Assembly (NCBI GenBank): GCA_964016885.1
Contig: OZ024765.1
Span: 19,096,001-19,160,000, forward strand
Direction of reading: 5' to 3'
DNA length: 64,000 bases
Source of the DNA: Eledone cirrhosa
Taxonomy: Eukaryota
Shown here: positions 6,287 through 62,962 of the stretch, in pieces
Numbering within the stretch: position 1 is the first letter of the stretch
Layout: each line of letters opens with the position of its first letter
Notes under the pieces: model-generated
Told to the model about the DNA's origin: nothing
The model's input: the letters and a program-made list of their open reading frames with translations, nothing else
Databases searched by the model: none
Translations under genes and position numbers: made by a program

Positions 6287-6402
6287 ATAGGAACCAGTAA
6301 GACCCCGACGGCTGAGCTCAAGCCGTTTCGACGGCTAATCCAGTCCAGAATTAGCCGTCGAAACGGCTTCAGCTCAGCCGTCAGGGTCTTACTGGTACCT
6401 AT
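6287..6402. repeat. GC-rich fold-back palindrome containing the 3' half of a hammerhead ribozyme
   Basis: ~53-bp arms around a ~10-nt loop; stem + GAAA + CGGCT..AGCCG + TC can be read on both strands. Confidence 0.8.
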
Positions 6403-7154
6403 ATATATATATATATATATATATATATACAATTATATATATATATATATATATACAATTATATATATATATATATATATACAATTATATATATATATAT
6501 ATATACAATTATATATATATATATATATACAATTATATATATATATATATATACAATTATATATATATATATATATACAATTATATATATATATATATAT
6601 ACAATTATATATATATATATATATACAATTATATATATATATATATATACAATTATATATATATATATATATACAATTATATATATATATATATACAATT
6701 ATTTATATATATATATATATATATATATATATATATATACAATTATATATATATATATATATATATATATATATATATATATACAATTATATATATATAT
6801 ATATATATATATATATATACAATTATATATATATATATATATATATATATATATACATACAATTATATATATATATATATATATATATATATATATATAT
6901 TATTGGCTTTTGCTGCAATGTTTTTCTATACCTTTCATTTATATATATATATATATATATATATATATATTATACACACAATTATATATATATATATATA
7001 TATATAGATAGATATATTTATTAATACATATATATATATATATATATATAATTGTGTGTATATATATATATATATATATATAAAGTACCTTCCCACCACA
7101 CTCAATGTGTCCCCTCCCATCCCCCAGTCCGACCACATCACAAGTAAGCCTCAC

Positions 7155-7182
7155 CTCCCCTACCCGGGGAAACTGACCACAC
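7155..7182 (-). CDS. Candidate 28-nt micro-exon (CGQFPRVGE)
   Basis: Strong acceptor tttctatcttcag and donor GAG|gtgagg in a unique island between repeats. Confidence 0.3.
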
Positions 7183-7239
7183 CTGAAGATAGAAATGTAG
7201 TGATTAATGACACCAATTGGAACAAGCAAATTAATAAGT

Positions 7240-7926
7240 TCACCATTATCACCACCATCACTGCAGTCACCACCATTACCACTACCACCACCACACTACC
7301 ACCATCACTGCAGTCACCACCACCACCACTACAACCACCTCTGCCGTCACCACCATTACCACTACTACCATCACTACCGTCACCACCATCACTGCAGTCA
7401 CCACCACCACCAACAACTCTGCCCGTCACCACCATTACCACCACCACCACCACCACTACACCACACTACCACCATCACTGCAGTCACCACCACCACACAA
7501 CCACCACCACTACCACAGCCAACACCACCACCTCTGCCGTCACCACCATTACCACTACCACCACCACACTACCGTCACCACCATCACTGCAGTCACCACC
7601 ACCACCACCACACCACCTCTGCCGTCACCACCATTACCACTACCACCACCACCACTACACCACCACCACACTACCACCATCACTGCAGTCACCACCACCA
7701 CCACTACAACCACCTCTGCCATCACCACCATTACCACTACCACCACCACCACCACCACCACTACACCACACTATCACCATCACTGCAGTCACCATCACCA
7801 CACAACCACCACCACTACCACAGCCAACACCCACCACCTCTGCCGTCACCACCATTACCACCACCACTACACCACTACCACAACCAACACCACCAACACT
7901 ACCACCACCACCACACCACCACCATC
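7240..7926. repeat. Degenerate (CAC)n repeat with higher-order CTGCAGTCACC / CTCTGCCGTCACC units
   Basis: Visible in sequence. Confidence 0.9.
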
Positions 7927-8269
7927 AATAAAAGGTGGTATTTAATGTCTATTAATGATGGCAAAGATCGATGATAGATCAATGATTGCAGAGACCTCTT
8001 GTGGATATCAATGACAGAAGTAGGGGAGGTAAGTAGGGTGGTGGAGTGTGAGAGATGAGAGTGAGAGAGAGGTGGTATAGATGAGGGAAGGGAGGTAAGT
8101 AAGGTGGGGGGAGTTAGGGAGAGGCAGAAGAGAAGTGTGGAGGTGGGAGGGTAGGGTTAAATGGAAGGGGGGTGGGGGCAACATGGTGGGAGGTGAGAGA
8201 GATGTAGATGGGGAGGGGGAATAGAGAGTGGGGGAGATGAGGAAAAGGAAAGTAGGAAGTTCAGAGCAG

Positions 8270-8645
8270 ATGAGTACAGGTGGGGGAGGTTGAGTGAAGG
8301 TGGGGGAGGTTGAAGTGAAGATGGGGGAGGTTGAGTGCAGGTGGGGGAGGTTGAGTGAAGGTGGGGAGGTTGAGTACAGGTGGGGGAGGTTGAATGAAGG
8401 AGGCGGAGGTTGAGTGCAGGTGGGGGAGGTTGAGTGAAGGTGGGGGAGTACAGGAGGGGGAGGTTGAGTGCAGGGGGGGGAGTACAGGAGAGGGAGGTTG
8501 AGTGCAGGTAGGGGAGTTTGAGTGAAGGTGGGGGAGGTTGAGTGCAGGTGGGGGAGGTTGAGGGCAGGTGGGGGAGGTTGAGTGAAGGTGGGAGGTTGAG
8601 TACAGGTGGGGAGGTTCAGTGAAGGTGGGGCAGGTTGAGTGTGGT
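8270..8645 (+). repeat. G-rich ~20-bp minisatellite (GTTGAGTGCAGGTGGGGGAG), G4-prone
   Basis: Tandem units carrying G4-G5 runs. Confidence 0.85.
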
Positions 8646-8700
8646 GGTGGTAGTGGTGGTATGTTGGTGGTATGGTGGTGGTGGTGTAGCGTTTAACAAT

Positions 8701-61149: not shown

Positions 61150-61221
61150 TTCAAACTCGCGCACCATTTCAAAAACATACTTATATGTTTACATTTATAA
61201 TTTGCTTGTATATATATATAT

Positions 61222-61964
61222 AGGCAAACTAACAGGGAGGGAGAAATATGTATGCAGTAGATGTACAGGGAAATTAGACAGTAGAAGTCGCACTGATAGA
61301 CACATTTTTCAAATGCGAGAGGGCGCTATAGAAGTGGTGGATAGCTTCCGGTACCTAGGAGATCAGATTAGCATGGGAGGAGGGTGTTCCGAGGCCATAG
61401 TATCTAGAATAAGGACGGGTTGGAAGAAGTTTAGGGAGCTGCTTCCTCTGTTGACGAAGAAGGGTTTCTCCCTGCGTACGAAAGGCCGGTTGTATGATGC
61501 CTGTGTGAGGAGCGCGATGCTGCATGGTAGTGAGACATGGGCAGCAACTGCAGAGGATATGCGACGGCTGGAGAGAAATGAGGCAAGCATGCTCCGTTGG
61601 ATGTGCAATGTCAATGTGTGTGAACGACCCAGCATAAATGTGTTGAGAGAGAAACTGTGTCTGTGAGGGATAGAATGTAGTGTACGGGAGAGGAGACTGA
61701 GGTGGTATGGACATGTGATGCGCATGGAGGATGACCGATGGGTGAAGAAGTGCCAGGATATGCCAGTTGAAGGAAGACGTGGTAGAGGTAAACCACGAAA
61801 AACATGGGCGGAGGTGGTGAGAACAGACCTCAGATCATTGAAGCTCATTGGAGATGACGAAGGACCGTGACGAGTGGAGAGATGCTGTGCTGAATAAGAC
61901 CCGTCCCACCCTTGCAAGCAGGGAAAAGCGGACGTAAAATGATGATGATGATGATGATGATGAT
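61222..61964 (+). mobile_element. RTE family C 3' fragment
   Basis: [18 protein letters not shown] and GKPRKTW with stops; almost no 3' UTR; (GAT)n tail. Confidence 0.9.
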
Positions 61965-62011
61965 ATATATATATATTCATAGGTAGATATATAGAATAGT
62001 CTATTACTGAC

Positions 62012-62124
62012 CTGCATATGTAAATGGTGCACCAGACCACCAGCCAAGGACATCAATGAGGACATAGAGAATGGTCAGCAGAAGGAAAGCAAAGCAAGCA
62101 TTGACCAAGATGAAGGAGAGAGAC
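62012..62124 (-). CDS. HGSNAT: HGSNAT penultimate coding exon (113 nt)
   Basis: ctctcaatag acceptor and CAG|gtcagt donor; SLSFILVNACFAFLLLTILYVLIDVLGWWSGAPFTYA(G) splices in frame to 56116. Confidence 0.93.
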
Positions 62125-62185
62125 CTATTGAGAGAAATGGAAAAAGGAGATAATACATGAACCTCACGCTAGATAGAGAATATAT

Positions 62186-62246
62186 ACTCTTTTACTCTTT
62201 TACCTGTTTCAGCCATCCGGCTGAGGCCATGCTGGGCACCGCCCTT
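62186..62246 (-). mobile_element. Short SINE/LINE tail fragment
   Basis: GGCGGTGCCCAGCATGGCC...GAAACAG followed by (GTAAAAGA)n. Confidence 0.5.
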
Positions 62247-62902
62247 GATATATATATATATTATTTTAGGAAAGTTGGTTGATCAGATAATCCATCGTCT
62301 TTGGTTGTAAACATACATATATAAACATATGCCAGTGGTATGGTGCATATTTCAGATATTCTCAGACATGACATCCTTAATTTAATTTTTCTTTATATAT
62401 ACTGCTCCTAAATAGTAGAGCTTTTTTTTCTTTTGAAAGGACTTGGCTGCTATTTCTAGCTGTCGATAATCCTTTTCACATCACTGGCTTGATAGGGGAG
62501 GGGGCAATGTGTATTTTTTTTTTTAAACCACACGTGCTTTTTGTCATTTCCTGGTTTGCTTTAGGTGTGTAATCACAAATAGTTAAATCTCCTTCTTTAC
62601 CGATGATCCGGGATTTGACTTCTGTGATTTACCAATTAATGGTGAAATATATTTCTTCAATGGAATATATACAAAGGAGATTAATCATTATTGCAAGGTA
62701 TATTCGAGGTTCTTGTTAATTTTTAATATGTTACCTCTGTAACTATGTGTGTTTACACCCTTTACAAATTATCTCCTGTAATTGTTTGGTGTGTTTATTT
62801 TATATATATATATGTCATTCAATTTTTAATTTAATGCTCTATATATATATATATATATATATATATATGTGTGTGTGTGTAATAAACAACATAAGATGAT
62901 TA

Positions 62903-62962
62903 TTTCATTTACCAGTGGTTTCTTGAAAGCATATATATCTGCTTTCAGTCGTCAGAATGAAA
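62903..62962 (-). ncRNA. Hammerhead ribozyme, family H2 (best copy)
   Basis: TTTCATT-CTGACGA-C-TGAAAGCA(gatatata)TGCTTTCA-A-GAAA-CCACTGG-TA^AATGAAA with a perfect 7-bp stem I. Confidence 0.75.

Follow-up and report, generated by a model that had tools for sequence, protein, structure and literature searches.

The window analysed here is a 64,000-nt stretch of Eledone cirrhosa contig OZ024765.1 (G000:C26:19096001-19160000 in a 3.0-Gb assembly), rich in (TA)n microsatellite and in copies of long interspersed nuclear elements (LINEs). It contains hammerhead ribozyme folds of several families, designated H1 to H5, whose relation to Penelope-like elements (PLEs) and retrozymes is the subject of this report. 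Type I hammerheads were defined by YUGANRA, GAAA and NUH in that order, a 3-8 pair and three helices. A relaxed descriptor located cores at 21525 (+), 41340 (-), 60287 (-) and 62955 (-); the reversed window had none, and 100 block-shuffles averaged 0.13 matches with at most 1. A stricter descriptor gave two window matches, against a shuffle mean of 0.02. An earlier sequence-only reading of the window had listed five folds; four of these satisfy the descriptor, while the fifth (core 44718, -) fails it, its helix I being damaged. The same reading had placed a half-ribozyme at 6287, and this site lies in a predicted fold-back of -94 kcal/mol (z -18) that retains GAAA, helix III, GUC and the 3' strand of helix I. 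H1, H2 and H3 are unrelated in sequence, as had been proposed, and give no mutual BLAST match. The window folds are real and belong to multicopy families. Hammerhead families have hundreds to tens of thousands of genome matches, including 14,373 exact matches to a 33-34-nt H1 core pattern (reversed control 0) and 20,007 to an H4 35-mer, in line with the high copy number expected of the islands.

Not every detail of that reading survived. The islands are larger than the ~100-260 bp first estimated, spanning 21470-21720 (H1), 6210-6400 (H4) and 60134-60540 (H3). A suspected Penelope reverse transcriptase (RT) remnant was not recovered in the window, where tblastn with 8 and then 10 PLE protein pieces from the same genome gave nothing better than E 0.38. 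The PLE-looking frame at 60710-60922 proved to be the antisense arm of the non-coding H5 tail. H5 is a sixth family that had been overlooked (2201 candidates in the genome, 40 scored); its hammerhead core is intact in most homologues among the matches listed and broken in the window copy. Rfam hammerhead models, which describe other sequence families, gave no match at gathering score in 12 sources. H3 reached 23.9 bits against HH9 (E 0.0014; gathering cut-off 52), and H3b, a sister family of H3, had no hammerhead match in Rfam. When the whole window was searched against Rfam at E up to 5, nearly all of the 150 matches listed out of 437 were microRNA models on microsatellites.

Table 1. Hammerhead-related features of the window, with positions counted from its first nucleotide.
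Feature	Position	Strand	Description
H4 long arm	6210..6339	-	Inverted 3' end with ~80-nt tail of a Hydra-motif PLE; 96% identity over 150 nt to the 3' end of L215
H4 short arm	6340..6400	+	Loop II, helix II 3' strand, GAAA, helix III, GUC at 6380-6382, helix I 3' strand; 5' core lost at the inversion
H1	21470..21720	+	5'-truncated 3' end of a PLE with RT, CxxC linker and GIY-YIG; core 21525; predicted cut after 21559
Older H1 relative	41291..41384	-	Core 41340; CUU site; helix I mismatch; 3' part resumes at ~40867-41042 past an insertion
H2 copy	44628..44731	-	Core 44718; helix I damaged; 87.5% identity to H2
H3 sense arm	60134..60365	-	232 nt of the 317-nt unit at 98% identity; U3-A8 core 60287; palindromic helix III; predicted cut after 60251; short 3' end in (TA)n
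H3 inverted arm	60364..60540	+	121 nt of the unit; 5-nt microhomology junction; 57 nt belonging to the 3' end of a different repeat family
H5	60565..60895	-	5'-inverted PLE-type end; hammerhead core 60663, lacking one base in the window copy
H2	62878..62999	-	5'-truncated 3' end of a Hydra-motif PLE with ~2-kb microsatellite-rich 3' untranslated region (UTR); core 62955; predicted cut after 62910

Penelope-like parents of H1, H2 and H4

The coding context of H1 was examined in the first 30 pattern matches along contig C1. Fourteen of these reach an upstream open reading frame (ORF) with RT, CxxC linker and GIY-YIG, for which the Pfam matches (RVT_1, E 7e-4; GIY-YIG, E 1.4e-4) both fell slightly below cut-off, and 16 are short copies that end within the UTR. 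The 3' ends form two clusters ~65 nt apart, and 22/25 abut (TA)4 or longer. The older relative with core 41340 is 83% identical to H1 over 53 nt. Judged by sequence continuity, the window H1 copies are 5'-truncated ends of an autonomous PLE. The RT of this parent (L124:1897-2739, -) has ~70 extra residues between motifs A and B and is accompanied by a C-terminal GIY-YIG and the hammerhead. Such insertions are tied mainly to clades with an N-terminal endonuclease (PMC8557442; here and below, statements from cited papers refer to the part of each text that was available). Compared with the Neptune/Nematis description (Cx2-5CxxC linker, no fingers insertion), the parent has the linker and also the ~70-residue insertion. 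The 5' truncations of H1 concentrate 74-106 nt upstream of the helix II anchor (10/30), and the window copies at 21470 and 41384 begin near this cluster.

For H2, 40 of 1494 genome candidates were scored. The copies have more than 800 nt of upstream sequence in common, and the identity of the 44718 copy to H2 extends over 88 nt. An ORF piece found inverted beside one H2 copy served for the parent search, with downstream DNA taken for 20 of 30 matching loci. The H2 core lay on the same strand 1.9-6.3 kb downstream of the ORF in nine of the 20, with UTR markers mostly in order; its absence within ~6 kb of the ORF in the other 11 speaks against this parentage. The ORF carries the motifs DKT, RWK and CxCx5C. 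As in H1, the 3' ends fall into two clusters, and 21/28 meet (TA)4 or longer.

The H4 core is U3-A8, and a CUGANGA version of it gave 0 matches. Among 26 arms taken in C1 order, 11 pass through helix II, 8/26 have an intact U3-A8 core, and 15 invert inside loop II, within ~30 nt. The 6287 half-ribozyme thus corresponds to the 3' half of such a U3-A8 hammerhead, in which inversion inside loop II is frequent. The parent has a 710-aa open frame with Hydra motifs (RWR instead of RWK) that ends 1.2 kb upstream of the core. All 24 of the 3' ends scored meet (TA)4 or longer, again in two clusters. In a set of 54 hairpins, ~30 of which came from matches ranked by likeness to the window copy, 53 pair one tailed with one short arm and the junctions vary. 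The arms match at four subfamily sites in a fraction of 0.91-0.96 of the 54 pairs (0.35-0.80 expected by chance), and those of pair L224 differ at three such sites. Together these features indicate that each hairpin is a separate insertion from one template, with few exceptions such as L224. A hairpin that copies itself as a unit was rejected because the junctions differ and the arms share subfamily variants. Two recurrent arm mismatches appear only among matches ranked by likeness to the window copy. In full copies (L215), the 3' strand of helix II repeats the 3' strand of helix III.

5' truncation, an inverted 5' copy and an optional tail were found among the H1, H2 and H4 elements. Their parents have RT followed by GIY-YIG with a hammerhead near the 3' end, Pfam matches being weak for H1 and absent for the Hydra-type pieces scanned. 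Distal flanks set a baseline of 5.5% for (TA)4 or longer and the window one of 22%, and the 3' ends described above bear out the proposed (TA)n targeting. The proposals of inverted ends and of a link to PLEs also held, the former in the paired long and short ends of the H4 hairpins and the latter in the ORFs with the same ends located elsewhere in the genome for H1, H2 and H4. The view that all islands are tiny non-autonomous ribozyme retroelements is, by contrast, largely refuted and barely credible. Short copies do dominate H1 and H4, ending in the UTR or inverting in loop II, and some could be re-transcribed and re-copied. H1, H2 and H4 are nevertheless continuous with PLE ORFs, and their 5' junctions differ from copy to copy. 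These three are almost certainly 5'-truncated or 5'-inverted 3' ends of autonomous PLEs, and the term "non-autonomous" applies to H3 only, a tandem retrozyme with PLE-type ends. Three of the four families are ordinary PLE debris.

By motif match to PMC8557442, the H2 and H4 parents bear Hydra-clade marks, namely DKT, RWK or RWR, a CxCx5C linker, CxxC and CxH around the E and N residues, and a (TA)n target. A Nematis-like placement of these parents was dropped on the Hydra motif list of that paper. They share these marks, a C-terminal GIY-YIG and the hammerhead with Hydra-clade PLEs including Hydra-1_Obim (Craig et al. 2021, PMC8557442), and an octopus Hydra family with (TA)n as its target appears in File S1 of the same paper. 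They differ from usual Hydra PLEs in tail length (~65-80 nt versus 30-40) and in being longer than the customary <3 kb because their 3' UTRs measure 1.2-2 kb.

The hammerheads themselves resemble those described in PLEs by Cervera and De la Pena 2014 (PMC4209133), which occur in terminal repeats, mostly as solo truncated copies, and as opposite-strand pairs 100-700 bp apart. Also shared are the unpaired base after A9 (in H1), the palindromic helix III and the U3-A8 core, a variant reported earlier in Schistosoma. H4 departs from them in its 6-bp helix III, interrupted helix II and ~40-nt loop with an inversion hot spot, and H2 in a C.A opposition at 10.1-11.1.

Tandem units H3 and H3b

H3 has 1364 candidates in the genome, with 374 exact matches to a 30-mer, and its core is U3-A8 rather than CUGANGA. 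All H3 arms map to one circularly permuted unit of 317 nt. A survey of 23 insertions in C1 order yielded 39 arms, the longest of 826 nt, of which 32 end in two 3' clusters; the 5' ends are spread across the unit. The intact core is kept in 25/30 matches. The sister family H3b has a 310-nt unit, 67% identical to H3, with a C3-G8 core, and a 20-mer common to the superfamily has 23,806 exact matches, counting units, many of them in arrays. Both H3 and H3b conform to retrozymes that lack long terminal repeats (non-LTR retrozymes): their tandem units fall within 170-400 nt and each contains a type I hammerhead, GC is low and there is no ORF. H3 is very probably a PLE-mobilised retrozyme, protein-free and non-autonomous. 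Its upstream flanks (n=22) have nothing in common beyond duplicates and one distal repeat, and no sense ORF was found in them. One of the 22 contains an antisense PLE RT piece. H3 as the 3' UTR of the adjoining PLE in L050 was rejected, since the RT piece is antisense, occurs in that one flank and belongs to a family ending in a different U3-A8 hammerhead.

Covariation, which the sequence-only reading had put forward as a check, was scored on the window H3 copy and nine of 32 distinct core strings, hand-picked for diversity; H3b, three false cores and near-duplicates were left out. Across these 10 variants 95% of cells pair and 13/33 pairs change on both sides, including U3-A8 to C3-G8, a level reached by 0/500 shuffles, although the set was hand-picked and related sequences such as these can beat shuffles without structure, which lessens its weight. 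Folded as circles, four units gave predicted z-scores of -3.6 to -7.5 at 33-35% GC. Helix III of H3 is predicted to form a self-duplex of -19.5 kcal/mol and no monomer hairpin by itself; that of H3b, a 6-nt palindrome, would pair only as a dimer. A helix that sequesters the H3 core has 2/6 covarying pairs and is dominant in 4/10 variants only. Pairing of core and helix III in H3, like the helix II/helix III repeat in H4, would allow a ribozyme-off fold.

Ten arrays were examined, nine of which are head-to-head pairs. All nine combine a long with a short 3' end; the two ends differ by ~32 nt and each lies in (TA)n. The arms comprise 0.5-9.9 units up to a limit of ~3 kb. Among 65 units from seven young arrays, the mean difference is 0-0.43 within arrays and 0-5 between them. 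Seven columns are fixed array by array across both arms, against three single-unit changes, and a 1-nt insertion is present in all 13 units of one array. Three arrays (L340, L344 and L307) have identical units in common. The older H3 arrays hold at most 2.6 units with 5-13 differences between them, indicating that the assembly resolves unit differences.

Origin of the arrays and inverted arms

We consider it likely that the islands are the 3' ends of Penelope-like retrotransposition into (TA)n, with H1, H2 and H4 as truncated or inverted PLE ends and H3 as a 317-nt tandem retrozyme, for which a PLE acting in trans is the likely copier and a predicted circular RNA its template. In this scheme, a tandem array would be transcribed and its hammerheads, probably as dimers through the palindromic helix III, would cut the transcript to monomers that would then be circularised. 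The PLE protein, with its RT and GIY-YIG, would cleave both strands of a (TA)n tract. Both strands would serve as primers on the same RNA, each starting cDNA synthesis at one of two fixed positions separated by ~32 nt. A circular template would allow up to 10 turns per RT; on linear PLE mRNA the enzyme would usually stop early, in H4 mostly in loop II. Joining of the two cDNAs at microhomology would give an inverted pair with one tail. The chances seem even for the full generalisation. In it, retrozymes would be moved by a PLE dimer that starts cDNA from each target strand, at two fixed positions of a single circular ribozyme RNA, and goes round up to ten times for each, so that head-to-head arrays with a PLE tail result; two-ended priming of this kind, and not simple fold-back, would make PLE inverted ends generally, and hammerhead loop II would be the main stop in one family of 20,000 matches.

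A circle is the template that we somewhat favor for the H3 arrays, and within-array identity with fixed changes between arrays is as expected for repeated copying of one circular monomer. Alternatively, the PLE that mobilises H3 and H3b could use as its template the uncleaved, linear multimeric transcript of a master array, with the hammerhead mostly idle. We regard this as unlikely, even though PLE transposition in vitro is independent of hammerhead cleavage and uses unprocessed RNA (PMC11167929). It would also suit the identical units shared by L340, L344 and L307, and the end of arms at ~3 kb, the size of PLE mRNA. The variants fixed over whole arrays, including the insertion carried by 13/13 units, need repeated passage through a monomer, and the covarying helices and core pair and the widely kept intact core are likewise at odds with an idle ribozyme. 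Several observations nonetheless weigh against cleavage and circularisation. Linear multimers from homogeneous master arrays would give array-fixed variants too. None of the 39 H3 arms has a 5' end within 5 nt of the cut site, so the genome holds no direct trace of cleavage. The H3 monomer region is predicted to be 4.8 kcal/mol more stable in a core-sequestered form, and eight of nine Xenopus retrozyme dimers were without cleavage in vitro (10.64898/2026.07.22.740005). As to the helper, comparison of the H3 units with six PLE-type 3' ends gave no match other than TA-rich noise.

Growth of the arrays in place by unequal crossover, as minisatellites, from the insertion of just one unit (a solo PLE terminal repeat) is highly unlikely. 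This route has been proposed for retrozymes (10.64898/2026.07.22.740005), and a single founder would also yield array-fixed variants. Both inverted arms are multimeric, however, with non-integer unit counts and exact PLE ends. Moreover, the young arrays differ by 0-1 changes over as much as 4.7 kb, and it is the older, more diverged H3 arrays that are shorter.

The inverted arms may be explained by two primings or by self-priming of a single cDNA that folds back, as proposed in PMC3846280. Fold-back as the source of all inverted pairs appears rather doubtful. It accords with the derivation of both arms of a pair from one template, with junctions on short palindromes or microhomologies, and with the nesting of 7/8 unranked H3 pairs and 7/9 H3b arrays. 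After a single fold-back the second arm can only lie nested within the first; non-nested pairs therefore need two primings, and such pairs occur in H3, H3b and H4; in at least one H4 pair, L224, the arms also differ at three subfamily sites. The short-ended arm lies further 5' in 10 of 25 unranked H4 pairs (opposite in 5, equal in 10), by differences of just 2-11 nt that are blurred by microhomology. It does so in 2/9 H3b arrays and in 10/23 H3 pairs, 9/15 of them from matches ranked by likeness to the window copy and only 1/8 in the unranked sample. The slight H4 differences and the low unranked H3 count tell against two primings. Cleavage and extension of both strands by a PLE with two RT start sites, as seen in vitro (PMC11167929), fits the pairs better than self-priming alone, and fold-back may account for the nested ones.

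One PLE family in this genome is a candidate helper for the retrozymes. It is very young (L153-L158, for example G000:C4:119557500-119565500; 23,598 candidates), and its many copies are nearly identical and keep an intact 777-aa ORF. The 3' UTR is long and rich in microsatellite, and the family has its own U3-A8 hammerhead with a 37-nt tail.

Neighbouring repeats and relation to known elements

The repeat family whose 3' end is fused to the inverted H3 arm lies at 60480-60540 and recurs in L194 (2708 and 3227), L082, L258 and L345, with a tandem period of 519 nt in L194. It has a CUGAUGA box, but no hammerhead fold or Rfam ribozyme match was found for it. A 98% palindrome at 60922-61149, whose ends, the one long and the other short, lie in (TA)n, recurs in four of the loci compared; no hammerhead was seen in it, and it is probably another PLE inverted end. 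An older fold-back at 63033-63342 has arms 80% alike and no match among the loci fetched for comparison. An old H1-related subfamily is represented by a tail-to-tail palindrome at 40727-41002 and a further fragment at 39260-39440. The LINEs include one with an open 1066-aa APE-RT ORF and PHD finger at 24744-27944 (+), which has partial copies of 95-99% identity at 28675-30975, 33384-35525 (-) and 58187-59542, and another type with an open 1004-aa APE-RT ORF at 36258-39272 (-). A tRNA-like head at 44090-44146 (+), at the Rfam cut-off and with similar pieces elsewhere in the window, is probably a short interspersed nuclear element. A descriptor census of the fetched loci gave at least five further hammerhead sequence types, each in at least three loci, which suggests that the genome holds many more PLE or retrozyme families.

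The kinds of element found here are known, as PLE hammerheads (PMC4209133), retrozymes (PMC7229834) and Hydra elements that target (TA)n (PMC8557442); the individual families may be new. H3 and H3b agree with animal non-LTR retrozymes (PMC7229834; Li et al. 2026, 10.64898/2026.07.22.740005) in their tandem organisation with a 310-318-nt unit that holds a single type I hammerhead, and in GC of 33-35%, lack of an ORF, well-paired circular fold and the presence of PLEs alongside. They differ from them in the PLE tail, inversion, (TA)n target, array-fixed variants and one U3-A8 branch, and no parent terminal repeat was found for them. Animal retrozymes show no motif indicating their helper, according to a 2020 review (PMC7761336). 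They have been tied to PLE terminal repeats by phylogeny, mostly in vertebrates (10.64898/2026.07.22.740005), in a text whose available part does not use the word "tail". The PAc Poseidon element studied in vitro (Frangieh et al. 2024, PMC11167929) resembles the present system in having two RT start sites that define a tail, cutting and extension of both strands, and an AT-rich target. Unlike H3 it is autonomous with a linear template, and circular or non-autonomous templates do not figure in the available part of that account. By title and abstract, we found no report of tails, inversions or array-fixed variants in retrozyme arrays, or of cephalopod retrozymes; Repbase, Dfam, supplements and Lunse et al. 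2017 lay outside that scope and could hold such families.

In the work that defined animal retrozymes and in later work, the identity of the RT and the use of circles as templates are hypotheses (PMC7229834, PMC7761336, 10.64898/2026.07.22.740005). The very young arrays, with their PLE tails, inversions and array-fixed variants, make both hypotheses concretely testable: RT start sites are defined, and numerous intact, nearly identical PLE ORFs occur in the same genome. The arm counts are also relevant to the formation of inverted repeats in PLEs. Genome annotation should treat the (TA)n hairpin "islands", which number in the tens of thousands, as PLE debris and not as separate elements or microRNA-like genes.

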